A stretch of DNA of 64,000 nucleotides. Source: a virus. Shown here piece by piece: positions 1 to 48,885 of the stretch. The DNA is taken from IMG/VR virus record IMGVR_UViG_3300028920_000052, positions 1-64,000 of that record; one strand, written 5' to 3'. The position numbers and the translations under genes were made by a program. Every line of letters starts with the position of its first letter. The stretch's first letter is position 1. The notes under the pieces are model-generated. The model was not told the origin of the DNA. It did no database searches and saw only the letters and a list, made by a program, of their open reading frames with translations.

Positions 1-1
1 A

Positions 2-3000
2 ATGTCAGATAAAACTAGAAGTCCTATTATTGAAGCCCCCAAATTTAAATTTAATCTATTAACTTCAGGTGTTCAGAAAGATGGTACTATAACTAAAGAG
101 GCTTTACCATTTCAAGTTAGAAATGAAGTAGGAAATATAGTTAAAGCTGAGGCTGCTCGTATTAGAGAAATATATGGTAAGATTAAAGAGCATACTGAGA
201 ATGGTACTTTAGAAGAATATAAAAGAAATGTTGGTGAACAATATTTTTATGGCTCACAATATTTCTATCTATTTCCAGAACTAAATGATATTATTTGGAA
301 GGATGGTGTAGTAGATCCTACCTTTTTAGTAGGTAAACAACTAGAGGCTCTTATTGATAGTGCTATGAATAGTATAGTAGATGTTGTAAATAATACTATA
401 ACTCAATGGCAAAATGATGGAACAACTAAACTAGATTCAAAAGGTAAATTAGAACATCAATTTAATTTATCATATGTAAAAGAACACATAAGTAGTTATA
501 AAGGACTAAACTTGGCAGCATTTGCAGCAGCAGACTTAGAAATAAATAACTTTATTTTTAATGCTAATATGCTGCAAATAGTGCAAGGAGATCCTGCATT
601 ATATTATAATACTAAATGGAACAAATTAAGTCCTAGAGAAAAAGTTGAAAATACTCTTAAAGAATACCAAAAGAGAGAGGCTAAAGATGCTGCTCCAGGT
701 GAATTAGGAACAACAGAGTGGGAAATTAGAGATGGAAATAAGGTATGGAGAGGTAATACTCATTATACAGTGCAGTTTGTAAAAGATGATGGACACGGCT
801 CATTAACTGATGGATATTTGCAAAGTCTTGAAGCTTACACTGGTAAGTTAGATAGAACAGATGCTCAGGAATACACCACAGTTAAAGAAAAAATAACTGC
901 TATAATGAACCATGGTAGAATTCCTGATGCTATTTTCATCAGCATAATGAATAAAATAGATAATGCTAAAGATGGTTATTATGAATTAGACGGAGAAGAG
1001 TTAGAATTCATTATGGGGCCTGATAAACCTGTACAAATTGTAAGAGAAGATATTGATGGGCATGAGCATACTTATTATATAAAGTCTTCATCATTTCCAC
1101 TTATTCCCCAATTTACTAAGGATACAGATTTAGATAAAGTTCGCAGAGCAATGGAGAGTAGCGGAACAGATAGAATAGCTTTTGTTTCTGCTACTAAAAC
1201 AGGTGCTAGAAATATTGTTGAAGTATTTGATAAAGAAGGAAATGTCAAAGATGGCCTAGACTTTAAAAAAACTCAGAGCCTTTTAAGTAGAAAAGGATTT
1301 AGTATTCAGCAAGATGTTCCTTATGATGACACTAAACATAATATTACAGTAGTTAGCCAGGCAGATAGGCTATTATTACAAGGGTTAGCTAATGTAGATT
1401 TTGAGTATAATGGTAAGAATGTTAAAGGAAAAGATTTAAAGAAACTTAAAGAAAAGATTAGGTCTAATCTTATGGATATGTCTAGAGAAGAATTATTCAC
1501 TAAGATTGGAGTTAAACTTACAGATGATAATAAACCCTATGTTGCTGACATGAATAAATTCCTTGAAGGGATTCGTGAAGAAGCAATAGATAGAAAGTGG
1601 AATATTAATGATGTAATGTCATTGAACATTGTAGATGGTAATGTGGTTGTTCCTTTAGGATTTAATAATAGTGCTGAAAGAATAGAGACATTGATAACTT
1701 CTATGTTCAATAAAGTTATTAAACAAAAAATTAATGGTAAATCTCTTGTACAAGGAAGTTCATCAGGACTAAGAAACAATGTTAAAACTTTAGAAGAACT
1801 TACTTCTAAAGATAAAAATGGTATAGTTTGGATTAAGGGTACAGATAATGATTTCAATCCACAGAAGGGGTTAACTTTTATAGATAGTAAAAGTGGCAAA
1901 CTAGCACAAGTAGTTTTACCCTGGAAATATCAAGCAGAAATGGAAAAGTTTTTAATTCCTGATACTAGCATGCTTGATATATCTAAGATAGATAAAGAAC
2001 TTCTTAATATTGTAGGATTTCGTATTCCTAATCAAGGACATAGTTCTCAACTAAGTATTCAGATAGTAGGATTTCTACCTAAGAATATGGGGGATTTAGT
2101 TTTAGTTCCTGGTGAGATAACTAAACAGATGGGTTCTGACTTTGATGTGGATAAACTCTATACCTATATATTTAACCACGTTGTTAATGATGACGGTAAA
2201 TTAGTTAAGATACCTGAATTTGTAACAGTAGAAGGAGATGTAGATGTAGATAAACTAAACAAATGGGTAAGTAAAAACTTTCCTACTAAAATCAATAATT
2301 TACAGAAATATACTTATTATGTAAAAGAAAGTAAAAAAGAAATTCAAGAGGGTATTGATTTTATAAGTAAATTATTCCAAGAAGAAAATGTAGAAACTGT
2401 TGATGAAGTAAGCGTTAAAAAAGATGTTCTAAAAGAACTAGGATTGACATATGAAGATATTAATGTGCCTAGTAGAAAATTTTTTAAAAGAGCCATTTTA
2501 CAAAATGCTTATATTGGAATACATTTAAATGTTCTTAGTAATCCAAAAGTTATGAAGTTAATGACTGAGCCTCTTGATGCTAAAGATTTAGAAATTACTG
2601 GTAAGAAAGGTGCTAAAATAAAAGAACCTAAACTATTTCTTTCAAGACAGAGGCAACTTGAAGATTTTGAGATACAACAAGCTGGTAAGAAAGGTGTTGC
2701 TATATTTTCAAGAGCTGTAGTAGGTCTTGCCATGATAGAGGACTATGACATTAGATTAGGTACTATAGTTAAAAAAGAAGAACAACCATTTGACTTTATA
2801 GGATTTAAAGATGATAAAGGAAATGTTATAACTCTTAATAAACTATCTGGTACAGGAACTTCTACTTTTAATGGAGAAATTAGAAGTAAAATTAGGAACT
2901 TAATTATTCAACAGTCTGGTGCAGTAGATAATGCTAAAACCCCTGTATTAGATATGAATGGATTGCATAGTTTGTTATTTAATGCTTCAATTGCAATGTC

Positions 3001-6000
3001 TATACTTCAATCTGAATCAGGAAAAGCATTAGATTTAAGATATAATTCTTACTTTTTAAGACAGCCTATTATTCAAGCCTATGTTAAAGAGTTAAGAAAT
3101 TTATCAGACTCTTTAAATACAGACTTTGTTCCAGATAGAAAAGAAGAAGCAATAGAGAGAGTTAAGGAACAGTTTAAAAGTAAACTAATTAATCCTGAGT
3201 ACCAAACTATAGGTAAATCTTATAGTCCTAATGAGTTATTAAAGTTATTAGAAATAACTGAAACTTCTAGTGAAACTTTTATTCAGGATCAATTAGAAAT
3301 ACTTGCACATTTTACAACTTTAGATACTATAGGTACAGAATTAGGTGAAATATTTACAGCATTATCTTCTGAAAGTAAGGGAGTAGGTAAAGGATATTGG
3401 GAAGCTTCACAAAGACAAGAGCAAATTTTTAAATTAGGTAAGAAAAGCCTAATACGTGGAGCAGAAGAATTAGTTGGAGATAATCAGAGTGGTAAAATTG
3501 CATCTTATGTTGGTGATGCTGTTAATATTTTATCTCAAATATTTCCTTATAATACTGAAGTGGTAAAAGGTATTATTAATGAAATTGAACTTGAGAATGG
3601 TAAAGATAGAGTGGATATTGAAATGAGAAAAGATATTTGGGAAGCACTTAAATCTTTCATATTTACAGATCCTCAGCTTGATACCACAGCGGAAAATAGA
3701 AATGATTTGTTTTATGGAGAAAATAGTGTAGCAAAACAACTAAATAAATTTTTAGAGACTAAAGAAGGTAAAGTAAATAAATTTGCTTTAAAACTTAAAA
3801 CCAAAGTAAACAACTCTAAAGGACTACCTGATATAATTACTTTTAATGCAGCTATTTCTGAAAGAACTGATGAACAAGAACTAGTAAAGTACTTTGTTGA
3901 TATGTTTACTAGTGCTAATGAAGAAACTAGAAATTTAGCTGAAAGGTTATTACAGTATGCATATGCTCAAGGAGGTATTCAACAGGCCTTACAGTTTGTT
4001 AAATATATTCCTACTCCTTATTTAAGTGCTACTAATTTTGGTAAAAGGTTAGAAGAAATATCTACATTACTAAAAGGAGAAAATGGAATTATAGACTCTA
4101 ATATATTTATTGAACAATTTTTTCAGCATAATCCTAATTTAGCAAGAAAACACAATGTAGAGAAAATAGGCAAAATTGCTAAAGAAGGTATAACTTTTAA
4201 TACAGAAAATGATAGACTAGCACATCTTAAAACTGTTAAAAATAACAAAGTTGTATTTGTAGATTATATTTCAATAAGAGATACAAGTAAGAATAAATGG
4301 ATATTACTAAAAAAAGTTGAGACTAACGGTAACAAATTAGTTTATAAACCTATTCCTTTAAAAGGTGGATTTGGTAAAAATTTTACAGCATATAATGAAT
4401 ATAATTTTAATGGGGAACAAGTTACATCAACAATACCTGAAAATAATCCAGAAGGAACTATTACACCTGTTGTTAAACCCAAAATAACACCTACTATAGA
4501 TACTACTATTGAAATAGGAGAAATATTAAACACAGAGTTTGAAAACATCAAAGCTTCTAAATATGTAGATGTGTTTAATGCTGAAGGAAAAGAAGCCTTA
4601 GATTTTGCATTATCACAGCTAGAAACTGATAGATATAAAGCATTGATACCCTTATTTACTAAAGAAAACTTATTTCCTAAGTTTAAAGTTATTTTAGATA
4701 ATAATCTTAAAGATAAAAATGGAAATATAATTAAAGGGAAAAGAAAAGGTGATACTATTATTATTAATCCTAAAGAACATAAAAGAATTGCGGATTTTTA
4801 TGGAAGAAAATTATCTAATGAAGATATTGAAAACACTTTAATCCACGAATTAGTTCATATTCCTACTGCAGATGCTTATAGAGCTTATAGATTAAAAGAA
4901 GAGCATCCTTTACTTACAGATAAAGTAAGAGAGAAGTTTAGAAATATTGATACCTTATTTATGGTAGCTTACAACAAGCTTTCAAAAGAGGATCAAAAGA
5001 AAATTGAATTAATTAGAAATAAAAAATTAGATGATTCTTCATTATCTGTAGAAGATAAAACTGGACTATATGGATTTACTAGCCCTACAGAGTTTATGGC
5101 TGAAGTTCTTACTAAAAAAGAATTTCAACAAAGATTAAATGAAATGTCCTTTAATTCTCAAAAAACTATTTGGGAAAGGTTTAAAGATTTAATTAGACAA
5201 GTTTACAATGAATTTATTAAAGGATTAGGATTTACTGTAAATGAGCAGAGTGTTTTAACAAATACTTTAGTTGAAGTTATTGATTTATTAGAAACTATTG
5301 GAAAAGATGAAAATGTTATTACGTCTAAAGTTTCAGAAATATATTCTCAATTAGGTAATAAAACTGAATCTGAAAATGTACATATTGAGCCTTGGAGTAA
5401 TTTAAAAAATGCTACAGAGGCTATTGTAAGTGTGGATGAAGATGTTTCAGCCCACATAGTTTCAACAAGAATTCAAGGAACTAATGAACATTTTGGTAAT
5501 CCTTTTAGTCATGCTCCTACTGGAAAAACACAAGGATTAATAAAAACAGAAACTATAAAAGAAGCTGTTGAGGCATATACTCAATGGATTATTCAAGAGG
5601 AAGATATTAGTTCTTCTTTTTATGAAAAGTATTTAAATAATATTAATTCTGATTTATATGATAATCTTCTTCAAAGAAGACAGTGGATTAGAGAACAACT
5701 TGAATCTGGAGAATTAAAAAATAAACCTATTTTTTATTATAAAGAATTGGGTCAACCTTCTCATGCTACTGCTTTAGATTATTTAATTAATAAATATGAT
5801 TGGAATACTAAAAATAAAAAAGAAGTAACTGATAAGGAACAAATACTTAAAGATAAATTAACAGGTAATATTGCTGATGATATAGATTTATCTATAAGCC
5901 CTTTAGTTGAAGGGTATGATAAAAATAAAGTTAATCTTGTATTTGGAGAAGAAGGACAAGTACAGTATGTATACGATGTAGTTAATAAAGTATTTAATAA

Positions 6001-7306
6001 TTTAAATAAAATAAATAACTGGGCTAAAGGTATTAAAAATGAAGATGTGTTATGGACTAAAATACAGAAAGATTTACAGATACCTTTAGAACAAATAGAA
6101 TTATTAAAAAATAGTAGGGGCAATACTATAGAAGAAAAACTATTAGATTTAGTTGGTAATTATGGTTATAGTGTTGAAGTTAATACTGCTAAAAACAAAC
6201 AAAAACAATTTGGTAGTTTTGAGGCAGAACCTGGAATTCCAATAGAAGCAATAATGCAAAATAGAAATGCAGCTGAAAGTGAAAAAGGAGAACCTACTAG
6301 TTATTATGCTAACTTAACAGTTCCAGGAGGTACTAACTATACTGAGAATGAAATATCTACTCCATTAATTACACCTTCTATTAAAGGACATGCTCAGTTT
6401 AGTACAGATAAAGGTATAGGTTGGTTTAGAAGTGATGAAAAAATCAGTAAAGAAGCAGAATATGTGGAAAAATTAGAGGATGAATATTTACCTTTTCCCA
6501 TGAAAACTAAAGAAGTTGAAGGTTCTAAAACTCGTAGAATACTGGAAATACAATCTGATTTATTTCAGAAAGGTAGAGATAGTAAAGAATTAGTTAGAGA
6601 AACTGGTTTAGAAACTATAGATTATGATGAGGAAGGTAGCCCATTACCTGCACCAATTTATAATGATACTAAAGGTAATCAATTTTTACAACTTCTAAAC
6701 AAAGACTCTAATTGGGTAACATTCTTTATTAAATCTATTGTGCAAGATAGTGCTAAGAAAGGATATGAGAAAGTATTATTTCCTAAAGGTGAAACTGCTG
6801 CTAAAATTGAAGGTCATCAAACTATTGCTGATGAGATAAAAGCTTTAGATACACGTATTGCTGGATTGAAACTTAGATTTAAAACTGATTTTGGCATAAT
6901 AGAACAAGGTAAAAATAAGGGGATGTGGTTTGGCTACGATAAACCATATAATAATAAATTACTTGCTGAAAGAAGCTGGACTTATGGTATTGAGCAATTA
7001 GAAAAACAAAAACAGAATCTTAAATCACAAGGTATAGAAAAACTTAAACCTATTGAAGCATTTTATGAGATTAGAGTAGGCAAAATATTAGAGAAACAAT
7101 TTGGTAAAAATAATGTTAAAACTATTACTGATGAATATGGAAATCAGTGGAGAGAAATAACTATTGTAAAACCAAAAGAAAATGTTACCTTTGAAGGAGA
7201 TTTAGGCATGTCAGTAAGTAAATATATGCAGACATTAACTAAAGAACAAAGAGAATTAATGAGAAAATTAATCAGCACAGGTCAGATAAAATTTAAGTGT
7301 GAGTAA
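2..7306 (+). CDS. Giant virion-packaged RNA polymerase (crAss-like vRNAP), probably 5'-truncated by the window, with extra C-terminal domains
   Basis: 2434 aa ORF. Catalytic GSDFDVDK (DFDVD at nt 2138-2152) preceded by GFRIPNQGHSS. Zincin motif HELVH at 4844-4858 with downstream EFMAE. Confidence 0.92.
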   Translation: MSDKTRSPIIEAPKFKFNLLTSGVQKDGTITKEALPFQVRNEVGNIVKAEAARIREIYGKIKEHTENGTLEEYKRNVGEQYFYGSQYFYLFPELNDIIWKDGVVDPTFLVGKQLEALIDSAMNSIVDVVNNTITQWQNDGTTKLDSKGKLEHQFNLSYVKEHISSYKGLNLAAFAAADLEINNFIFNANMLQIVQGDPALYYNTKWNKLSPREKVENTLKEYQKREAKDAAPGELGTTEWEIRDGNKVWRGNTHYTVQFVKDDGHGSLTDGYLQSLEAYTGKLDRTDAQEYTTVKEKITAIMNHGRIPDAIFISIMNKIDNAKDGYYELDGEELEFIMGPDKPVQIVREDIDGHEHTYYIKSSSFPLIPQFTKDTDLDKVRRAMESSGTDRIAFVSATKTGARNIVEVFDKEGNVKDGLDFKKTQSLLSRKGFSIQQDVPYDDTKHNITVVSQADRLLLQGLANVDFEYNGKNVKGKDLKKLKEKIRSNLMDMSREELFTKIGVKLTDDNKPYVADMNKFLEGIREEAIDRKWNINDVMSLNIVDGNVVVPLGFNNSAERIETLITSMFNKVIKQKINGKSLVQGSSSGLRNNVKTLEELTSKDKNGIVWIKGTDNDFNPQKGLTFIDSKSGKLAQVVLPWKYQAEMEKFLIPDTSMLDISKIDKELLNIVGFRIPNQGHSSQLSIQIVGFLPKNMGDLVLVPGEITKQMGSDFDVDKLYTYIFNHVVNDDGKLVKIPEFVTVEGDVDVDKLNKWVSKNFPTKINNLQKYTYYVKESKKEIQEGIDFISKLFQEENVETVDEVSVKKDVLKELGLTYEDINVPSRKFFKRAILQNAYIGIHLNVLSNPKVMKLMTEPLDAKDLEITGKKGAKIKEPKLFLSRQRQLEDFEIQQAGKKGVAIFSRAVVGLAMIEDYDIRLGTIVKKEEQPFDFIGFKDDKGNVITLNKLSGTGTSTFNGEIRSKIRNLIIQQSGAVDNAKTPVLDMNGLHSLLFNASIAMSILQSESGKALDLRYNSYFLRQPIIQAYVKELRNLSDSLNTDFVPDRKEEAIERVKEQFKSKLINPEYQTIGKSYSPNELLKLLEITETSSETFIQDQLEILAHFTTLDTIGTELGEIFTALSSESKGVGKGYWEASQRQEQIFKLGKKSLIRGAEELVGDNQSGKIASYVGDAVNILSQIFPYNTEVVKGIINEIELENGKDRVDIEMRKDIWEALKSFIFTDPQLDTTAENRNDLFYGENSVAKQLNKFLETKEGKVNKFALKLKTKVNNSKGLPDIITFNAAISERTDEQELVKYFVDMFTSANEETRNLAERLLQYAYAQGGIQQALQFVKYIPTPYLSATNFGKRLEEISTLLKGENGIIDSNIFIEQFFQHNPNLARKHNVEKIGKIAKEGITFNTENDRLAHLKTVKNNKVVFVDYISIRDTSKNKWILLKKVETNGNKLVYKPIPLKGGFGKNFTAYNEYNFNGEQVTSTIPENNPEGTITPVVKPKITPTIDTTIEIGEILNTEFENIKASKYVDVFNAEGKEALDFALSQLETDRYKALIPLFTKENLFPKFKVILDNNLKDKNGNIIKGKRKGDTIIINPKEHKRIADFYGRKLSNEDIENTLIHELVHIPTADAYRAYRLKEEHPLLTDKVREKFRNIDTLFMVAYNKLSKEDQKKIELIRNKKLDDSSLSVEDKTGLYGFTSPTEFMAEVLTKKEFQQRLNEMSFNSQKTIWERFKDLIRQVYNEFIKGLGFTVNEQSVLTNTLVEVIDLLETIGKDENVITSKVSEIYSQLGNKTESENVHIEPWSNLKNATEAIVSVDEDVSAHIVSTRIQGTNEHFGNPFSHAPTGKTQGLIKTETIKEAVEAYTQWIIQEEDISSSFYEKYLNNINSDLYDNLLQRRQWIREQLESGELKNKPIFYYKELGQPSHATALDYLINKYDWNTKNKKEVTDKEQILKDKLTGNIADDIDLSISPLVEGYDKNKVNLVFGEEGQVQYVYDVVNKVFNNLNKINNWAKGIKNEDVLWTKIQKDLQIPLEQIELLKNSRGNTIEEKLLDLVGNYGYSVEVNTAKNKQKQFGSFEAEPGIPIEAIMQNRNAAESEKGEPTSYYANLTVPGGTNYTENEISTPLITPSIKGHAQFSTDKGIGWFRSDEKISKEAEYVEKLEDEYLPFPMKTKEVEGSKTRRILEIQSDLFQKGRDSKELVRETGLETIDYDEEGSPLPAPIYNDTKGNQFLQLLNKDSNWVTFFIKSIVQDSAKKGYEKVLFPKGETAAKIEGHQTIADEIKALDTRIAGLKLRFKTDFGIIEQGKNKGMWFGYDKPYNNKLLAERSWTYGIEQLEKQKQNLKSQGIEKLKPIEAFYEIRVGKILEKQFGKNNVKTITDEYGNQWREITIVKPKENVTFEGDLGMSVSKYMQTLTKEQRELMRKLISTGQIKFKCE

Positions 7307-7307
7307 T

Positions 7308-10300
7308 ATGAAATGTAGAATAACAGAAGCAGCAGATCCTAGATTAGTAGAGCTTATTGAAAAATATGGACAATCTAAGGGACTTGAAATATATGTGGAT
7401 GAAAAAGGTACTGGAATTCCTTATAAAGAGCCTTCTCCTGAAATAGAATCAGAGCCTGTATTTGTTCCTTATGAAAAAGCTATAGTTCATTTAAAAGGTC
7501 AATTAAGGCTGGAACAAAGAAGATTAGATGACTTAAAATCTAAAACTTCTGTTGAAGATAATCTTGAAAAAGCTAAATTGCATGAACATAGTAGAGAGTT
7601 AAAAGAAAAAATTGAAGAGTTGGAGAATTCCCAGGATTTAGATACTCTTATAAATATTGCTAATTTACAATTAGACTGGGTAGTTAGTTTATTTAATAAA
7701 GAAAATTTCCATCCTGCAGAATTAAATGAAGCTAAAAGAGTTATAGAGTTGTGGTATGATATTAAAACTATACTTTACGGTGAAGGAGTTGAAAGAGATG
7801 CTTTAGATGAAAGAGTGATTGAGAAATTTGATGCTTTAAGAGCTAGAATAGATTCTGAAGGTATAACAGATAGACTATTTAACATTAATGCAGAATTCTT
7901 AACTAAGCAGGCAGGTTATTTAAGTACTTCTGAATTTCTTAAAGAACTTTATAAATTAAAAGACTTGGATAAAGGTACAGAATTTGGTAGATGGCTAGGT
8001 GCTACAGGTACTAAATATCTGACTGTTCTGGATAAAATGAATAGAGATGCTGCTGTTAGAGTGGATCAAATAATGAAAAGTTGGAGTCAAAGAATTAAAG
8101 ATGTTTTGGCTCCTATTAAAAAAAGGGGATTAGAGAGCCTTTTATGGCAAGTAGATAAAGATGGGAACCCAACAGGTAATATGACTAATAGATATTCTCA
8201 AACTTGGTATGATGCTAGAAAGGCAGCGTATAATGCATTGAGAAAAAGTATAACTAATCCTAAATCTACTACTACTAGCAGAAACAACGCTTATAAAAAA
8301 CTAACTAAATTTCTTAAAGATAATACTGTTACTGTAGATATGAGGTATTTTATTGATAGTAAATACGAGTCTAGAGAGGGTGTTACTAAGGAAATGCACA
8401 TTGAATATCTTAAAGAGCAGTTTGGAGAGGTTAGAGCTAATGAAATTATAGAACAAGCAGCAGAGTCTTATCAAAAATATTTAGAGAATTTAGAAATAAT
8501 TAAGAGGCTTAATGAAGAAAAAGTAGAAACTGGAGAATTAAGTTCTGAACAGGCTACTATGATAGTATCAGAATGGGTAGATAAAAATAGTCCTATAGTT
8601 TGGTTAGAACAACAAGATGCTCCCATAGAAGGTCAAACAAAGAAATTTACTCAATCTACTTTTAATAGATTTGTTGTTAATAAACCTAAGAAAATAATTG
8701 AAGGTAAAAAAACTGAATGGTATGATGCTAACTATGAAAGAATAGAGAATGATAAAGAATTATTAGAAGCATACAATACTATAAGGGAATTTATGGATGA
8801 GATGATGTCTTATTTACCTCAACATATTAGATCAGATATACAAGCTAACTTCTTACCTAGAATAAAAAGAGAATTTGTTCTTGCTATGAATGCAGAAGGA
8901 CTTAAAGGTGCTGTAGCTGGATATGGTGAAGACTTTATTAATAGTATGACTTCTACGGCTGGAATGGAGAATAGATTTTTAGAAGAAAATGAGATAGGAC
9001 AATTATATAAAAGTATACCTACTAAATTTACATCTCCAATACCAGTGGATGAAAGAAGTAGAGATTTAGAAAAAATTCTTCCTATGTTTGGTACAATGGC
9101 TCTTAACTATAAGTATAAAAGTGAAGTACAGGATAGAACAGAATTAGCACATAAATTTCTGCAATCTATTGCTAAAAGTAAACAACGCAAAGAATATACT
9201 ACAAATGAATTAAATAATACTCTTGAAACTATAGAGTGGTTTATGGATTCTCAACTATTTGAGAAGACTAAAATGGATGAAGGGGTAACTAGCATTAAAA
9301 CCTTTAAAGGAAATACTTTTGAAATAGTTAATCAAGATAAAGCAGAAGAAATAGAAAAGGCTTTTAAAAAATTAAGAAAATCTAATGATGCTGATACTGC
9401 TGTTAGACTTCTCAAAGAGATGTTTGGGAATGATATAAAAGTAATGAAGGTTAAAGAAAGATATAAACAACTAGTAGAAAAAAGAGATGAGATTGAGGAT
9501 AAACTGTATAATGATGAAATTACTCAAGATGAATATGAGAAATTAATTAAACCTCTTGAAGATGAAGCTAACGGTCTTGGTAGAAACTTAGTAATGTCTA
9601 AAGTTGCAGATAAGTTAATGAGGTATAATCAGGCTATGGCATTTTGGTTTAACCCTTTCTCAGCATTTAATAACTATATGTTTGGTGTTCTATCGAATTT
9701 AACTTGGGCAGCAGGAAAAACAGATTTTAATCCAAAACAAACTATACAAGCTTTTGGATTAATGTGGAAATCTGCATTGAATTTAAAAGATGGTAAGTTG
9801 GATAAGGCTACCAATTTAATTGCTAAATTTAATCTTCTTTATGAAAATTTAGAGTATAACAGTTCAGATACACAAAATGAAACATTGAAGAAATTAAAGG
9901 CTTTTCCTTATGTACTACTTAGGAAAGGAGATTTATTTATCAAAGGGCAGACTATGATTTCTATTATGTTAAATAAAAAAGTTAATGTAGTTGAGAATGG
10001 TATAGAAAAAGAAATAAGTTTATGGGAAGCTTTTGATGATAGTGGTGAATGGAATGTGGAAAGATTTGGAGAAAATAAAGAATGGAGGGGAGATTGGACT
10101 AATCCTGAAGATAATAAAGCTTTTCTAGACTTTAATAGATATGTAAATAAGATAGAAATAAAGTTGCATGGTAACTTTGATCCTAATGCATCCCCAATGT
10201 ATAAAAAATATGTACTAACTAGAATGTTAGCACAATTTAGAGCAAGTTGGATGATAGAAGGTATTGCACAAAGATTTGAAAGTAGAAAATTTGATGATGA

Positions 10301-13613: not shown

Positions 13614-14288
13614 TTATTTCTTGCTTTTTATTGCATCCATAAATAGTTTAAAAGAATAGTGTTTTCGTTCTAGAAACAACTCAGCATCTTTATATAAATA
13701 ACTGTATAATTTTATTAATTCTTTTCTATTGAAACATCTTAAATACCTTATATTATTTATGGTGTATTTACCTTTTTTATAATCATAAATGGTACTTTCA
13801 ATATCATTTATCTTAAATATATTCTTAATTTTAAAAAGAATATTATCTAATCCAATGATACCAAAAGTAGCCACTTTATTATTATATCTGGAATCTAAGC
13901 AAAACCAGCCATCTCCATCAAAAAATCCTCTAATATAATGAGAATAAAGAGTATCATCCAGCTCAGGAAAATTCAATGACTTAGTTTTGTACTGTGGACA
14001 TCCTGCATTTGCCAAAGATTTACTTAAAGTTTTCCGTGTAATAGTAAGTCTATATTGATTTTGTCTAGTAAAATCTTTAACATCATAAGTTAAGTTACCT
14101 TCGTATTTCAACTCAGTTTTTATTTTTAATAAAATGTCAACATCACGTTCCTGTAGATTAAGTACTATAGTACCTCTTTGTTCATTATTATACCCATCTG
14201 CACAAAACAACCCTAGAATATATGCTTTATTAGGAGTATCTATAACATCAAAATAATTTTCATCTACTAAATACTTTATTTTCCCCAT
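13614..14288 (-). CDS. Free-standing double-motif LAGLIDADG homing endonuclease
   Basis: AYILGLFCADG and YIRGFFDGDG motifs, C-terminal LERK. No group I core seen in the flanks. Confidence 0.9.
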   Translation of the reverse strand: MGKIKYLVDENYFDVIDTPNKAYILGLFCADGYNNEQRGTIVLNLQERDVDILLKIKTELKYEGNLTYDVKDFTRQNQYRLTITRKTLSKSLANAGCPQYKTKSLNFPELDDTLYSHYIRGFFDGDGWFCLDSRYNNKVATFGIIGLDNILFKIKNIFKINDIESTIYDYKKGKYTINNIRYLRCFNRKELIKLYSYLYKDAELFLERKHYSFKLFMDAIKSKK

Positions 14289-36330: not shown

Positions 36331-39300
36331 TTATTTGGTCCAGTAATCACTAACACTGCAATCAGCAACTATAGGTATTGTTTTGATAGATTCTTGTGCA
36401 GCTTGTATCATTAATCTTTCTAATACCTTACTCCATTCTTCAGCAAAGTCTTCTCTACATTCAGTCTGTATTTCATCATAAATACTTAATAGGATATATA
36501 CAGGGTAGTTATGTTTATCAATTTCATTTTGAACTAGACATAAAGCTCTCTTAATAATATCTCCATTTGTCATTTTTGTTATCCTAAAGGCTCTTTATCC
36601 TTTAGTTCTATAGGTTCTTCATTTCCTATAGTTCGGACTATATCATTAATATTTAAATAATTTATAATATTTTCTGTAAAAATGTATAATTGTTCTATAG
36701 TTGCAGAATTTTTCATAGTATTGGCTAAAGTACTTATAACTTTAACATTCCCTTGTATATATCCTTTAGTATTATCAATTCTATCTAAAGATGGTGAATT
36801 TTGATAATTTCCTTTTGTACCTGTAAATAAAGGTATTTTCAGAATTGGGCATATTTCAGGAATTACTATATCATCTAATGTTATATCAAAAAGAATATCT
36901 TTTTTCAATGCACGTATTTGGGCATTTTTTAATAAACGCTTAGCCACATATCTAGGATATCTTTCTCGTTGTTTATTATTTACATTTTCCCGTATAATAC
37001 TGTCGTCCATTCTATCTTTATAATACTTGCGCTTATTAATATTAACTTTTTCTTTATTTTCACGTCTGTATTTATTTAAATATGCTTTACGTGAGTTATT
37101 ATAACATTTTTTGCAACAAGACATATACGATATTTTACCTTTATATTCACCAACTTTATAAAAATCAATTAAAGGCTTAATTTCGCTACATTTTTTACAT
37201 TTTTTCATAGTATCTACATTAGTTTATTTACTAATGTAAATATAATAAAATTATTTGAATATTATTCCATTTTCGTGGGAAAAATATACTCCTATAATTT
37301 ATAGGTATCATTTCCTAGTCTCTGCACCTTCAAAAATATTACTATTTAAGCTTGGCTCAAGATTGGCATCTCAGCTTTCCTTGAATTTATGGAATTTAGA
37401 CAGGGCACAATTTAGCATCTACCCTGTATCGGACTATTTTTACTTTTTCTTTCAATACTACCTAAAGATTTATAATCTTCTTTATTTAAAGAAAGATTTT
37501 TATAATTTTTAAAATAAGATTTCCACTCAGGAAAATATCTTAGTCTTCTATATGGAGCACCTGTTCTAATATATCCTCTTGTTTTACCTAATTCTCCTAA
37601 ATGCACTAGAAATGAATATACTTGTGATACTCTAGAAAAGAAGGTTTTAATAAGTTTTTTAGCATCATCTACTGATACTTGTATTGTATCTGCTAACTTA
37701 TATTCTGACATTCCAAAAGCCAATCCAAAATTTATAGTCTTTTGTACATCTCTGTATGTAAATGTAGGTTTTGGTGGAAATGGTTTTTTTACATCCTTTA
37801 TAGGAATATTAAATGTCATTGCACATAGTTTAGAGTGCAAATCTTCCCCGTTCTTAAACGCATTAACCCAGGTTGGATCTTGGCTGAATTCTGCTATAAT
37901 TCTGAGTTCCATCAACAGGTTTTCTTCCTGCTGGACTTTATCTTAACCATATACAATTATATTGTACTTAGGTAATCTCCGTTAAGTCTCTACACCTTCC
38001 TTATTTCACACAAGGCTTGGCTCGGTATTCCCAACGCTGGTTCACCGAATTTGAAGATTTTGTACTTTAAATGTTTCCAAATAAAGAGGCATATAATCTG
38101 TTATATTTTCTTTCTAGATAAACAGATGCGTTTTTGTATATTAAATTATATAAAGAAGCTATGTCTTTTTTAGAATATATTCCTATTATGTAAATACTAT
38201 CTTTTCTACAAGAAACTGTACAATGAATATTATTTTGGGTAAACCACTCTACAAGTTGATTCTTAAATTCTACAGATTGGGTAGCAATTTCAGTCCTACC
38301 AGTAGTTTTTCTAATAAACCCATCTCCATCTATTACTCCTCTAATAAAAGAAGGTGATAGTGAAATATTCATTTTAATAGTTTTACTTTTTCTGGGAGTT
38401 ATTCCAAGATTTCTCAAGAATAAATTACAAGATTTATTTTTGAATACGACTCTATATTCAATAGAATTAAACTTTTTACTAAAAACTGTTCTTATAGGTA
38501 CCTTTGAAAATTTTGAATACTTTTTTATATGTTCTAAATCTTTTTCTTGTAATCCTAAAGATACTACATATTCTTTATCTCCTATAGTTCCATCAGAAGC
38601 AAGCATACCTAACCAATATTGCACTTCTTCATTTTCTAAATCTAAAAATGGATTAAGTACTTTACTTTGAGCTTCTGATTGATTTCTTGGAATTATTCTA
38701 TTTCTTAATAATATTCTTCTAATAGTAGTATTATAAGTTTTTAACTCTAAAGCTAATTGTTTCGTAGTCTTACCCTGTAAATATTCTTTAACTATTTGTT
38801 CTTCATTATATTTTAACATACGTATAATTATTGATTCGGCAATATATACCACAATAATCATACCAATTTTTATCTTCTACCGCTGTAGTCTCCACCAACA
38901 ATTTTATATCCTTCTCTAGGTATAAAAGCACTTCTAATTTCTTTACCAAATTCTCCATGTGAAGGGATTTGATTTAGGTTAGGTTCTGATACTGAGATTC
39001 TTCCAGTTGCCAATATTTGCCATACATTATAATGAACTCTTTTAGTAACAGAATTTATATGTTTTAAAAAGTTCATACCAAAAGCATCAGCAAGTTTATT
39101 ATGTTTACTGTAATTTATTAATAGGGAAACTAATGAATGGCTAAACTTATTTTTTTGCAGTATTCTATCTCCTACAGAGTCAATTTTTAATCCTAATTCT
39201 CTTAATATTTCTAATTTCTGTTGATTTGACTTCCAATTTATGTAAGTATCTCTTTCTGTATTATCAAAGAAAAGATTTCCTTGTTTATATATTGTACAAT

Positions 39301-40060
39301 ATTTAGTTAAAGCATTAGTATTCGGTAAATCTTTAGTACCTAATTTATAAATTAAAGTATCCATTTCTTTTTCTACATCATCTCTAATTTTTGAAGCTTT
39401 AATTGCAACATTTTTCCATTTATCAGTGTCTACTCTAATCCCAGTGTACTCCATCCTAGCAAATACTTTTACTACTTCATTTTCTAAATTTAATGTGTTT
39501 TCTAACCCTAAAGTTTTTATTTTTGGCAATTGTAAGTCTTTGATTTTACCTAAATACTTTACATCATTACATCCATAAACTATTACTCTATCTGATAATC
39601 CTTCAGAATGTATTTTTCCTCTTATTTCTTTATCTAATTCAACATTAAGGTACTTCTTTGCTATACCTTTTAAACTTACATCTCTTTCTTCATCTGAATA
39701 TCCAGTAGTTAGAATGCATTCAGCAAGAAATGTATCATAAATATTTTCTACAACTAGATTATTATGATAAAGAAATTTTAAATCAAATTTTGCGTTTTGA
39801 AATAAAAATAACTTAGACTTATCTGCAAATAAAGGTATAAAAACTGAAGAATCTATACTACTCCAATCAATAAAAAATTGATTATCATAATCTCCTAATT
39901 GTAAAGATATTACTCTTTTAGTATAAGGGTCAAATCCTTCAGTTTCTGTATCTACTCCTATTTCTTTTAAACTATTACAATATTCAAGACAATCTTGAAT
40001 ACTTGCTAGTTTTATATCTTCATTTTCAATTCTTTTTTGATTACTGACTAAGTATATCAT
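36331..40060 (-). CDS. polA: Family A DNA polymerase, spliced: exons 40060-38879, 37912-37421 and 36570-36331 (637 aa)
   Basis: Exonuclease motifs DTET, NAKFD and YGCND. Joining exons restores motif A (DYSG|MELRIIA) and NSPIQG|TNGDIIK. Motif B KTINFGLAFG and motif C IYDE. Confidence 0.92.
36571..37420 (-). mobile_element. Group I intron 2 in the DNA polymerase (850 nt)
   Basis: Exon ends CAGGGU with P1 partner GCCCUG; P/Q AAAUUCAAGGAA and AAUCUUGAGCCAAG; R GCAGAGACUA; S GAUAUAGUCC; terminal G before ACA AAT GGA. Confidence 0.92.
36579..37208 (-). CDS. Intron-encoded HNH-like homing endonuclease
   Basis: CKKC...CKKC, CPIL and SLDRIDNTKGYIQGNV...N motifs; 3' end overlaps the intron P7'/P9 region. 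Confidence 0.85.
   Translation of the reverse strand: MKKCKKCSEIKPLIDFYKVGEYKGKISYMSCCKKCYNNSRKAYLNKYRRENKEKVNINKRKYYKDRMDDSIIRENVNNKQRERYPRYVAKRLLKNAQIRALKKDILFDITLDDIVIPEICPILKIPLFTGTKGNYQNSPSLDRIDNTKGYIQGNVKVISTLANTMKNSATIEQLYIFTENIINYLNINDIVRTIGNEEPIELKDKEPLG
37913..38878 (-). mobile_element. Group I intron 1 in the DNA polymerase (966 nt)
   Basis: Exon ends ...AGCGGU; core AAAUUCGGUGAA, AAUACCGAGCCAAG, GUAGAGACUUA and AAGAUAAAGUCC; ends CCUGUUG before ATG GAA CTC. Confidence 0.92.
38067..38819 (-). CDS. Intron-encoded LAGLIDADG homing endonuclease with N-terminal HTH
   Basis: YWLGMLASDG and FIRGVIDGDG motifs, C-terminal LERK. Confidence 0.9.
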   Translation of the reverse strand: MLKYNEEQIVKEYLQGKTTKQLALELKTYNTTIRRILLRNRIIPRNQSEAQSKVLNPFLDLENEEVQYWLGMLASDGTIGDKEYVVSLGLQEKDLEHIKKYSKFSKVPIRTVFSKKFNSIEYRVVFKNKSCNLFLRNLGITPRKSKTIKMNISLSPSFIRGVIDGDGFIRKTTGRTEIATQSVEFKNQLVEWFTQNNIHCTVSCRKDSIYIIGIYSKKDIASLYNLIYKNASVYLERKYNRLYASLFGNI

Positions 40061-45214: not shown

Positions 45215-45475
45215 AATTGTAATTTTTATTATTAATAAACAAAATAAACCTCTCCTAACCTAATTTAATAGGTAACTCTCATCAAGGTTATTTCTTGAGT
45301 TTTATAAATCACCTTTCTCCTAACTAGATGCTGGTGATTATTTGAAATCCCAATTCTTAACTTCTTCTATTGGAATTAGATTACCCTGTATTAATATATA
45401 CATGATTAAATGTATTTAGCCGTTTATATTATTTCTACAGTTAAGTCTGGCTAAGGCTAGATTGTAGAAATTAAT

Positions 45476-45627: not shown

Positions 45628-45783
45628 TTAACTTAGATAATAAAATATACTCCAAAGAATACAAGTTGGAATATAAATAAACCAATGTACCCAATTTGAA
45701 ATATTTGTTTCAATTTGTTCAAATGCATACATTCTTATAGAAAGAATAGTAAATAATAAACAAAAGAATAATAAGATTGCCAT
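45628..45783 (-). CDS. Small two-TM peptide (51 aa, not in ORF track)
   Basis: MAILLFFCLLFTILSIR...WSIFYYLS; preceded by the CTAACCTAA leader motif. Confidence 0.5.
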   Translation of the reverse strand: MAILLFFCLLFTILSIRMYAFEQIETNISNWVHWFIYIPTCILWSIFYYLS

Positions 45784-45921
45784 AGTTTTAAGTATTAGGT
45801 TAGTAATGTTTTTTATAACTATTGCAGGTTAATCACTCCTACTGCACAATGTTTAATACTTCCTAGTTGGTTCATACATCAAATATTACCTATAAGACTA
45901 GTACTGGATTAAACTACTATA

Positions 45922-46499
45922 CTTGTATTACTACAAGCAAGGCATATTAAAACAGATAGTTGTAGCTATCACTCTTTTATGAGTTGTTATAATATGCTGC
46001 CACTACAATAATAGGAATAATTTCTGTACCTATTGATTAAATAGGCTATTATTGCTTTATACTTCTCTACCAATTATGAGGCTAATCTCAACAGCTAATA
46101 ACTGCTTTATTGGTATGAAGATATTAAATAAGTGAAATTGGTAGCTTTTTATAGTTTTTATTTAAGCCACTCTACTCTTCTGTTAGCACTGCCAATATTC
46201 ACTTATATTATCAAATAGTTTGTAATTATGTGGCTACGTCACATACCTCTTTAGACTTCCATAGGCTATATTACAAACTTCCATTACTGGTTTGATAATT
46301 TGTAAAAACTCTTTCTATCCACAATGCTAACTGTAGAATATAATTAAACGTAGGCTCATCTCTACTATGGGTTTGTACACCAAGTTTTATTATTAATTAT
46401 ATCTTACCTCAGACAACATTCTGTTAGCTTAAAATTAAATAGTAGGTGTCGCAACTGTTTTATCCTAGTATTTTTATCTGCATTCAGTAGAAAGAGTTT
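45922..46499 (-). ncRNA. Tiled array of multibranched structured RNA modules (cluster 1)
   Basis: One hairpin plus six abutting stem-closed domains in an ORF-free stretch; GUAA tetraloops on the minus strand. Confidence 0.6.
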
Positions 46500-46507
46500 A
46501 GTTAGTT

Positions 46508-46819
46508 TTAAGGTTTAAATGTATAAATGTAAGTAGTATCTGTTACTGTTTTGCTGTCTTCAATAGTATTAGTAATTACTACTTTAGGAATAACTCTGTA
46601 TTTTACTTTGTATTCAGGGGCAATATTTATGGCTGCTGTTAATATTATTGTAAATATAACAACAATTATAATTGCTGCCATTCCTACTCCTACAAAGTCA
46701 TCTTCTTTTAAACATAACAAATTAGCAATTATTCCAAAAACTGCTATTAGTCCTAAAAATACTATAAATGCTGTTATCATAATTGTAAGTTTTAATTGAT
46801 AAAATTTAAAGGTTAGCAC
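46508..46819 (-). CDS. Two-TM membrane protein
   Basis: Two long hydrophobic segments. Confidence 0.65.
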   Translation of the reverse strand: MLTFKFYQLKLTIMITAFIVFLGLIAVFGIIANLLCLKEDDFVGVGMAAIIIVVIFTIILTAAINIAPEYKVKYRVIPKVVITNTIEDSKTVTDTTYIYTFKP

Positions 46820-47241: not shown

Positions 47242-47315
47242 TATAATAAGTTTTTAGGTTAGTATTAGGTTAATCCACTCTGTATTTATCAGGGCTTGTG
47301 ACCTGCTATCATAAG

Positions 47316-47498
47316 ATAGGCTACATTAGATTATGTTATATATATTTGATGTGTCAAATAATAGTGATGTTGGAAAAAGGGGAAAAAGGTATAAGTGGTA
47401 ATAGAGCCACATACTTACACCTTTATTTCTCAAACATTTTCAAGCATTTTCAAACAATTTACTTGATACATCAAATACTTTTGAACAAAATGTCCTAT
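47316..47498. repeat. Long imperfect inverted repeat (about 180 bp)
   Basis: Nested arms TATTTGATGTGTCAA/TTGATACATCAAATA and AAAGGTATAAG/CTTACACCTTT. Confidence 0.65.
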
Positions 47499-47530
47499 AT
47501 ATATAAAGGTATACATTATGTTAAATAGAA

Positions 47531-47966
47531 ATAAACTCTCACAAGGTTGCACCTTGAAGATATGCACCAAAACACCTTATAGATAGCTCCGAACCCTTTA
47601 GGTATTATACTGGAGATAGTGCATTATTAGCTATAAGTTCCTGCAATTGGATGAGAGTTTATCAGAAAAATACTGTAAATTCATGGGAATCAGCTTTACT
47701 GCCTAGATTAAGACAGACCCAAGTATCCTTTATTAATATAAGCTGCGAAACCTATAAGCCCCTTTAAAGATAAAACTAGGTAAAGGCATTTTACAGTATA
47801 AGAAAGAAACACTCAAACTGTATAGTACATAAGGAAAAACATTAAAAACCCTTATAATACAACAGTAAGAGTGTTGTGAATATTTAAAAGGTACACAACT
47901 CCACTAATCCTGCGCACTACTCTATCACTATATTTCTCTGTATATAGTAGTGGAATTGCGTACCTT
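47531..47966 (-). ncRNA. Tiled array of multibranched structured RNA modules (cluster 2)
   Basis: Four abutting stem-closed domains; A-C mismatches on + become G-U pairs on -. Confidence 0.6.
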
Positions 47967-47995
47967 ATATTATGTCTAATAAAAAAAGAACTAGC

Positions 47996-48241: not shown

Positions 48242-48520
48242 AATTTTGAGTTATTAGGTTAGACAATTTGATGGGGGCTATATCCCCCTTGCTAGAAGTT
48301 AGTGGGGGTTATTGAGTAGATACATCATATTTTCGTCAATGAAAAAAATTTAAAAAAAAATTATAAAAAAAATATTTTTTACATTTTTATTAATGATGTA
48401 TTTTTGCATCATAAAGTATGAATATTGTACTTAATGTTGAATATTTGCTACTTTAACATAAAGGATAAATTTGAGAAAAGTATTAAAATTTTTAAATTTT
48501 CTAAAATTTTTACTAAAATA

Positions 48521-48558: not shown

Positions 48559-48885
48559 ACTTCCCAAAGCTCAGGACTGTTCACGAGTTGATCCTGGTCC
48601 ACAAGCTGAGGGCATGAATACCCTCTGAGGTAGCCAAAGTAAGAGGAGAACAGGGCCAAGTAGATGCACTCTTGAAATAATAGAGAAACATAGTGTTAAG
48701 GAAGTCCTGTAGTATGAAAGATGATACATAGCAATGTGTAAAGGAGATAAAGGCTAGGGTGAGATTGAGATGCCTCTCTACAATTTAAAAGTTGGACGGG
48801 ATAACCAAGACGGCGCATTGTGAAAGTTGAAATTAAGTAGGAAGCCTGAAAACCTAGTTTTCTCAGGAAGTTTTCTATTTAAATA
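48559..48885 (+). ncRNA. Candidate structured ncRNA of about 320 nt
   Basis: Relatively GC-rich, no convincing ORF, follows a promoter. Stems CAGGACT/AGTCCTG, GAGGG/CCCTC and TACATA-GCAA-TGTGTA; terminal hairpin. Confidence 0.55.

Follow-up and report, generated by a model that had tools for sequence, protein, structure and literature searches.

A chain of stem-closed domains in a gene-free tract of the early region of a crAss-like phage

Few known phages are as abundant as the crAss-like phages, and the first minutes of their infection are poorly understood. What can a stretch of about 700 nucleotides (nt) without any gene be doing in the early region of such a genome? The question is raised by a window of 64,000 nt (positions 1 to 64,000 of the IMG/VR virus record IMGVR_UViG_3300028920_000052), in which the tract 45803-46507, called array 1 below, carries no open reading frame (ORF) and is largely tiled by domains that are each closed by their own stem. 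The initial annotation, made from the sequence alone, had proposed that these domains form an early, minus-strand cluster of structured non-coding RNAs (ncRNAs). The tract turned out to be real and unusual to a moderate degree; it is, however, an orphan, and its neighbours are more informative than the tract itself. We tentatively favour, at a little less than an even chance, that it is a folded, nuclease-resistant ncRNA segment transcribed together with the 115- and 103-amino acid (aa) ORFs upstream of it, and that it is the positional counterpart of early intergenic RNAs of the Cellulophaga phage phi14:2.

The window is the opening part of a 97.6-kb record that is 99%-complete and has a GC content of about 28%. 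The phage is assigned by its sequence to the crAss-like group, because crAss-type PHROG families are matched by its terminase, portal and major head protein, its genome measures 97.6 kb and the early ORFs here all lie on the minus strand. Between about 10.8 kb and 48.2 kb the genes, including those for replication, are encoded on the minus strand; beyond about 49.0 kb they are on the plus strand. The tract lies about 2 kb into the minus-strand arm from the divergence point, reaching from 1 nt past the stop codon of the 103-aa ORF to the 5'-untranslated motif of a 51-aa ORF, and the ORFs on both sides are co-oriented, early and on the minus strand.

The coding status of the tract could be settled directly. 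Between 45784 and 46507 no ORF of at least 30 aa was found under genetic code 11, and recoding with TAG as glutamine or with code 4 gave only short, stop-recoded frames and opened no ORF, in line with the initial annotation, which had called the stretch ORF-free. The six frames contain 14-30 stop codons each, where 17-21 are expected from the base composition. Random stop density and the absence of a frame under any tested code show that the tract is genuinely non-coding, as opposed to a gene that was disrupted recently. A decayed gene was also rejected by comparison, since tblastx against the ORFs at the syntenic place in a relative, G003, was empty.

The folding of the tract was compared with shuffled sequences and with coding DNA of the same genome. 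For 45900-46505 (606 nt) the minimum free energy (MFE) is -137.4 kcal/mol on the minus and -134.4 kcal/mol on the plus strand, which corresponds to z-scores of -3.83 and -3.82, and none of 20 shuffles equals it. Sixteen coding controls of 606 nt gave a mean z of -1.23 (standard deviation 1.19, minimum -2.77), so that the annotated structure folds better than both kinds of control on either strand. By GC-corrected MFE the tract ranks 7th among 324 minus-strand windows of the genome. Tiling was measured as the number of nt inside domains that do not overlap, each with a perfect closing stem of 8 bp or more. The coverage is 471 of 560 nt, which is attained by none of 500 shuffles and by 0.16% of genome windows, with some coding windows equal to the tract. 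Inverted repeats of at least 8 bp occur at 7.3 per kb genome-wide, and the tract has 11 where about 5 are expected. In a partition function over 724 nt the pairing probabilities of the closing stems range from 0.66 to 0.99 (plus strand) and from 0.17 to 0.97 (minus strand), and the competing 8-9-bp repeats 46067/46144 and 46153/46310 have a probability of 0.00. The stem tiling is therefore real and exceeds chance moderately, by about two standard deviations and not overwhelmingly. The z-scores of single modules (-1.8 to -4.8, Table 1) are to be read as values for boundaries picked after the fact.

All closing stems named in the initial annotation were found in the sequence. Only the coordinates of the TACCAAT/ATTGGTA pair had to be corrected: it spans 46068-46115, and an outer CTTC/GAAG pair yields the limits 46062-46120. 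The spacers, given as 1-8 nt, are indeed short and measure 0-8 nt. An architecture with two inner hairpins, said to be common to the modules, is clear only in modules A and C, whereas in module B a single hairpin is solid and D and F have no well-defined fold inside their closing stems; the units range in size from 16 to 194 nt. Module A is the best-defined one and makes up 52% of the ensemble, with closing-stem probabilities of 0.97 (minus) and 0.99 (plus). The corresponding values are 0.97 and 0.88 for module C, 0.90 and 0.97 for module D, and 0.88 and 0.95 for module F, whose interior is multibranched. Module B is least stable on the minus strand, where its stem reaches 0.17 vs 0.89 on the plus strand. 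Inside module E a 10-bp stem (46217-46279) and two hairpins are predicted.

Table 1. Coordinates of the folded tracts, their modules and the adjoining early features; positions refer to the window.
Feature	Position	Strand	Evidence and remarks
Whole ORF-free tract (array 1)	45803-46507	-	No ORF, stops random, fold z -3.8 on both strands
3' tail of the tract	45803-45921	-	No significant fold; z ~0 for 45790-45861 and 45862-45941
Small hairpin CTTGTA/TACAAG	45922-45937	-	6 bp, GUAA loop on minus; inverted repeat, fold
Module A, GCATATTA/TAATATGC	45942-45997	-	8+4-bp stem, tight three-way junction, two hairpins; z -4.81
Module B, CAATAATAG/CTATTATTG	46006-46054	-	9-bp closing stem, one solid 6-bp hairpin; z -3.0
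Module C, TACCAAT/ATTGGTA	46062-46120	-	Outer 4 bp + 7 bp, two inner hairpins; z -2.91
Module D, ATAAGTGAA/TTCACTTAT	46128-46206	-	9-bp stem + 5-bp extension, weak inner hairpins; z -2.15
Module E, (A)TTATCAAA/TTTGATAA(T)	46207-46299	-	9-bp closing stem; z -2.78
Module F, AAACTCTTTCTA/TAGAAAGAGTTT	46306-46499	-	194-nt domain, perfect 12-bp closing stem; z -1.84
Second folded tract (array 2)	47340-47966	-	z -5.5 minus vs -4.4 plus
Conserved stem-closed cassette (module 2d), arms AACUCUCAUCCAAUUGCAGG ... UCAAGGUGCAACCUUGUGAGAGUU	47530-47660	-	Recurs in IMG/VR
Twister-P1 ribozyme match	47272-47332	-	Rfam RF03160, 63.0 bits (gathering score 67.2), E 2e-14
Upstream early ORF, 115 aa	46894-47241	-	ORF calling
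Upstream early ORF, 103 aa	46508-46819	-	Probable start is the ATG at 46782
TAACCTAATACT leader motif	45791-45802	-	Just upstream of the ATG of the 51-aa ORF; downstream limit of the tract
Downstream ORF, 51 aa	ATG at 45783	-	Preceded by the TAACCTAATACT motif

Such a structure may also arise in DNA that does nothing. The tract could be a functionless spacer, left-over or fast-drifting DNA at a place where accessory early genes come and go, with repeats that arose by chance in AT-rich sequence or by template-switch (quasi-palindrome) mutation, which gives perfect, symmetric stems. We consider this unlikely, although much is consistent with it: inverted repeats are frequent in this genome, the tiling is matched in several coding windows, structure is moderately in excess, and the stems are in fact perfect and strand-symmetric. 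In addition, no homologue of the tract was found, the nearest relative lacks it, and the whole interval is swapped between relatives with 83% identical capsid proteins. However, no shuffle reaches the tiling, none of the 16 coding controls has a fold z as extreme, and six or seven compatible, non-crossing domains of high ensemble probability, with the competing repeats at zero, are a more orderly arrangement than repeats scattered by chance. Phage genomes also rarely retain 700 nt of useless DNA, which we counted against the spacer.

The two strands were compared by folding energy and by the number of G-U pairs. Summed over the seven modules, the energies are -120.3 kcal/mol on the minus and -122.4 kcal/mol on the plus strand, and of about 175 pairs 10 and 9, respectively, are G-U. 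The assignment of the RNA to the minus strand in the initial annotation thus finds no support in array 1, unlike in array 2 (see below).

Stems that are strand-symmetric, perfectly Watson-Crick and poor in G-U pairs are what an element acting as DNA would have, namely hairpins or cruciforms in single-stranded or supercoiled DNA that serve replication, recombination or the pausing, entry or termination of the virion RNA polymerase. The virion polymerase of phi14:2 has been assayed on denatured DNA (Drobysheva et al., bioRxiv 10.1101/2020.03.07.982082), and a minimum of the cumulative GC skew lies nearby, at about 47.8-48.2 kb. We give this explanation little weight, as the skew minimum and the point of divergent transcription are 1.5-2.5 kb off, the stems differ in sequence and so offer no single repeated site to a protein, and multibranched domains are not expected of cruciforms. 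A replication origin was rejected because the tract has neither iterons or tandem repeats nor a cluster of DnaA boxes; it holds one 8-of-9 match to the DnaA box, a motif whose genome-wide count is at chance level.

Known RNA families were searched with Rfam 15 (4227 models) at three thresholds and region sizes. No match reached the gathering score in the window, and at E<=10 the tract gave only plus-strand snoRNA noise of 14-16 bits, so that the annotated RNAs could not be placed in any family. ARAGORN called no transfer RNA (tRNA) or transfer-messenger RNA (tmRNA) gene in the window or anywhere else in the 97.6-kb genome; even at E 10, Rfam's tRNA model did not match the tract. As a positive control, ARAGORN and Rfam recovered the tmRNA of phi14:2 and the tRNAs of the phage G001. 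In its mitochondrial mode ARAGORN made one spurious call, outside the modules. No Y RNA was matched among the modules. A CRISPR array was rejected because the tract contains no direct-repeat family and no tandem repeats; with no repeated unit and no tRNA call, the earlier statement that it is neither CRISPR nor tRNA holds. Inside the tract no terminator-like site was found, and scans for sigma-70-type promoters, terminators and the Bacteroidota -7 motif TAnnTTTG gave matches at chance level only.

Relatives of the tract were sought in several ways. It has no blastn match in GenBank phages and no similar DNA in about 490 kb of related loci or in G001 and G002, two distant relatives reached via the 115-aa neighbour; in G001 the equivalent place is taken by four tRNA genes. 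No homologue is present either in eight loci with the first early gene in common. In the JGI metagenomes a search with a protein profile yielded none, and a search with a conserved flanking 21-mer recovered a sole contig with matches identical to those of G003. Five contigs have a capsid protein of 82-84% identity, and none of them contains a homologue of the tract; only G003, the closest relative to do so, extends to its position. Its first early gene shares 65% aa identity, the end of its 51-aa ORF shares 86% nt identity, and the interval between these anchors is 1.7 kb of unrelated sequence, which lacks both the 115-aa and the 103-aa ORF. No unit of array 1 was found to recur in the loci and IMG/VR searched; the 3' arm of module F gave three chance matches to coding DNA in IMG/VR and recurs nowhere else. 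As no homologue was found, no conservation or covariation can be demonstrated for the tract.

A precedent comes from phi14:2, itself a crAss-like phage. In phi14:2 two long early intergenic regions, at the g004-g005 and g005-g006 junctions, are transcribed above most genes, are expressed from the earliest time point and stay abundant, with unknown function (Drobysheva et al., bioRxiv 10.1101/2020.03.07.982082). In NC_021806 they correspond to 2905-3589 and 3911-4601, about 690 nt each. Both genomes thus have two ORF-free blocks of about 700 nt between small ORFs of the early operon (here 45784-46507 and 47242-47995), and the tract is a long ORF-free interval in the early operon of a crAss-like phage like those of phi14:2. 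A blastn search of the tract against bases 1-9000 of NC_021806 gave no match. The second phi14:2 region contains a tmRNA (L012 4031-4500, +; Rfam RF00023, 46 bits with a gathering score of 47, E 7e-16), which is also called by ARAGORN with the tag GSSVQKLAMVA and whose identity is not stated in the text of the preprint. In the first region a fold signal is absent (z -0.3), and the tract is therefore analogous in position and not in structure: of the phi14:2 regions one is a tmRNA and one is unstructured, while the tract is neither.

More can be said of array 2, which lies upstream in the same run of genes and is the better-supported RNA candidate of the two. Its four main modules (47531-47966) reach -115.9 kcal/mol on the minus vs -92.7 kcal/mol on the plus strand, a gap of 23 kcal/mol, and contain 14 G-U pairs vs 4. 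Of the eight loci with the first early gene in common, five are long enough to show what comes next to it (L032:4485-5140, L037, L040, L042, L043), and in all five this is an ORF-free, strongly folded gap at the position of array 2, with sense-strand z-scores of -2.7 to -6.4 and no sequence similarity.

Array 2 ends in a match to the twister-P1 ribozyme, directly upstream of and abutting the leader of the 115-aa ORF and 770 nt upstream of array 1. The match is full-length with the conserved core nucleotides aligned. Together with the minus-strand bias of array 2, this near-threshold minus-strand match gives good indirect support for transcription through the region on that strand and for processing of the RNA; for 45803-46507 itself we infer the same. 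In module E of array 1 a 13-nt segment is identical at 12 positions to the 5' part of the twister, and the module also contains UAAAGAGG. A twister was defined by a UAA cleavage site, GCC, a GGUCCCAAGCCC-type loop, UAAA and GAGGG in a P1-P2-P4 frame; in module E these elements stand in the wrong order and no Rfam twister model matches, so it was rejected as a further copy.

Array 2 also contains a conserved cassette, module 2d. Its arms are identical in the relative G005, where the interior differs. A 20-mer of the 3' arm is present in 29 IMG/VR contigs (L053-L081), and in 26 of these the core AACTCTC of the 5' arm lies 51-131 nt upstream of it. The 5' arm AACTCTCATCCAA is invariant in 24 distinct aligned copies, the interior is variable (30-110 nt), and the element often stands 20-30 nt upstream of an ATG. 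It is absent from Rfam 15. A possible pseudoknot, UUGCA:UGCAA, was noted in it.

From the 24 copies a covariance model, R1, was built and searched with filters off. The true copy scored 78.1 bits. Among the relatives R1 matched an incomplete element in L037, and it gave no match in G003, L040, L042, L043, phi14:2, G001 or G002; the cassette is thus patchily distributed among close relatives. Module F shares the terminal AAACUCU/AGAGUUU and a UGCAG at a similar offset with 2d. Membership was defined by the invariant arms AACUCUCAUCCAAUUGC... and ...CAAGGUGCAACCUUGUGAGAGUU, and module F was rejected as a diverged copy, as the best score of R1 in the tract is 10.2 bits at E 0.65 (46411-46499). 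Both 2d and the units of array 1 are stem-closed, variable inside and set in the same early non-coding context; the arms of 2d are, however, invariant across 24 copies and found in 29 contigs, whereas the arm of module F recurs nowhere. In the gap upstream of a 74-aa ORF (45270-45383, minus strand) R1 scored 15.2 bits (E 0.056), and this segment, which shares UCCAAU and CCUUGAUGAGAGUU, is possibly a degenerate second copy of the element.

A further explanation is the strong form of what the initial annotation proposed. Array 1 would be a polycistronic precursor, severed within its linkers of 0-8 nt to yield six or seven trans-acting early small RNAs, which might, for example, decoy host nucleases or defence proteins. 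A layout of stem-closed units that are joined by very short linkers recalls tRNA operons, G001 and phi14:2 have their tRNA genes and tmRNA at the corresponding place, module 2d behaves as a discrete cassette, and the predicted self-cleaving ribozyme next door points to processing in the RNA of the region. However, no unit of array 1 recurs in the searches made, no tRNA, tmRNA, Y RNA or other Rfam family is matched, no strand signature is seen, the linkers have no common motif or CCA-like end, and the ORFs scanned include no RNA-binding or RNA-repair protein. We therefore regard such a precursor as improbable. Equally improbable is its more specific form, in which RNase P/Z-like or RNase III-like activity or an unrecognised ribozyme would release strain-specific, stem-closed small RNAs that act in trans, within minutes of infection, as decoys against host nucleases or RNA-sensing defences, and the region would be an RNA arsenal of rapidly exchanged cassettes.

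Returning to the folded, co-transcribed segment that we tentatively favour, an early minus-strand transcription unit would comprise the 115- and 103-aa ORFs followed by about 700 nt of untranslated, heavily folded RNA. It would sit in a fast-changing, accessory part of the early region, and the tract would be the lineage-specific counterpart of the abundant, long-lived early intergenic RNAs of phi14:2. The chain of stem-closed domains most likely would protect the RNA against host RNases and set it apart from the next gene, whose leader motif begins at 45802; the short linkers may be cut to give smaller stable RNAs. Early RNA is probably made and processed here, since a functional-looking minus-strand twister lies in the same gene run. 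Transcription of the tract, its strand, the stability of its RNA and any role are what we infer from this context and from phi14:2.

A number of observations weigh against this reading. Array 1 lacks a strand asymmetry in energy or G-U count, and its closing stems are all perfectly Watson-Crick, as DNA-level or young repeats would give. The structure exceeds the coding controls by just about two standard deviations, and no homologue was found across GenBank phages, IMG/VR, the JGI metagenomes and the related loci. G003 keeps both flanking anchors and has ORFs of 121, 57 and 77 aa in the interval between them. A second ORF-free gap near the position of array 1 occurs only in L037 and L040, where the folds are weak (z -1.5 and -1.7). 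Finally, the unfolded first region of phi14:2 offers no structural parallel. The proposal of an early structured ncRNA thus stands in part: the tract is non-coding, folds more than expected and has a precedent in phi14:2, but a strand signal, an Rfam match and a homologue are missing.

Comparison with known systems gives the same picture. Phages carry tRNA arrays, and their tRNA clusters also encode small stable RNAs such as the species 1 and 2 RNAs of T4. Such arrays resemble the tract in having units with 7-12-bp terminal stems that are separated by a few nt, and G001 has its tRNAs at the syntenic place; the tract differs in the absence of a cloverleaf and in the wide range of its unit sizes. 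GOLLD and ROOL are phage-carried structured ncRNAs of 500-800 nt with unknown function that are conserved across many genomes. The tract is likewise large, structured phage non-coding DNA, but it is an orphan without an Rfam match. Repetitive extragenic palindromic (REP) and bacterial interspersed mosaic element (BIME) sequences and the early RNase III sites of T7 are intercistronic stem-loops that block exonucleases or direct cleavage. These are single hairpins or repeated sequences between genes, whereas the tract consists of six or seven non-repeated, partly multibranched domains that occupy 580 nt without an intervening gene. NcRNAs of mixed kinds, namely tRNAs, tmRNA, ribozymes, conserved cassettes and orphans, thus appear to reside generally in the early region of crAss-like phages.

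Two short motifs are repeated in the early region. The 12-mer TAACCTAATACT occurs in identical form at 47261-47272, before the 115-aa ORF, and in similar form at 48251-48262, before the first early ORF. The leader motif CTAACCTAAWAC (48251-48262, 47254-47272 and 45791-45802, minus strand) lies 12-21 nt upstream of three early start codons. A second motif, AUUUGAUGUAU (AWAUUUGAUGUAUSWA), has three minus-strand copies (48311-48330, 47457-47476 and 45865-45884, the last in the 3' tail of array 1) about 90-230 nt upstream of the same three start codons. Both motifs are confined to the early region, neither is kept in the relatives, and their three-fold repeats bracket the two tracts alike. Both may be leader, promoter or processing signals. 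The copies of AUUUGAUGUAU may be promoters or processing sites, and if they are, each folded tract would be the tail of one unit.

A hairpin of a G-run and a C-run, GGGGGATATAGCCCCC, stands about 30 nt upstream of the first early gene (48270-48290, minus strand). It has counterparts in several relatives (L041-L044), for example GGGGAATATTTCCCCC, and may be a start signal for the virion polymerase. On the plus side of the divergence point, non-coding DNA at 48567-48843 is 81-83% identical to L033:1885-2087 and L035:547-680; these two contigs carry tRNA genes just downstream (L033:2144-2216 and L035:883-1030), and the present genome has none. The early region of G003 (L032) contains three strong intergenic hairpins on the minus strand (about 4080-4110, 3610-3640 and 5090-5125) with very similar loops, GGAGAAAUCU, GGGAGAAAUCC and GGGAGAAAUCUC, which may be a lineage-specific terminator or signal.

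Among the neighbouring genes the very small ORFs around the tract match no Pfam or PHROG family, and the 115-aa protein has only three relatives, all of them distant. The first ORF of the window has at least 2434 aa, and an ORF of 1175 aa comes next. In the replication block a 396-aa DNA polymerase fragment is immediately followed by an endonuclease ORF, and HNH/endonuclease VII-like and LAGLIDADG ORFs occur elsewhere in the block; the segments concerned are 38067-40060, 36579-37208 and 13614-14288, all on the minus strand. This suggests that introns or inteins divide the replication genes.

To our knowledge, phi14:2 provides the only transcriptome of a marine crAss-like member, and in it early intergenic RNAs outnumber most mRNAs and persist. 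The tract described here is a further case of large, folded, gene-free DNA at the same early place. Taken together the two tracts form a mosaic, in which conserved cassettes, namely the twister ribozyme and the RNA element found in 29 contigs, are combined with strain-specific chains of stem-loops. If the strain-specific part is not functional, the tract shows how far a claim from folding statistics alone can go in AT-rich phage DNA. If it is a functional RNA, it would represent a fast-evolving, RNA-based means of host takeover or counter-defence.

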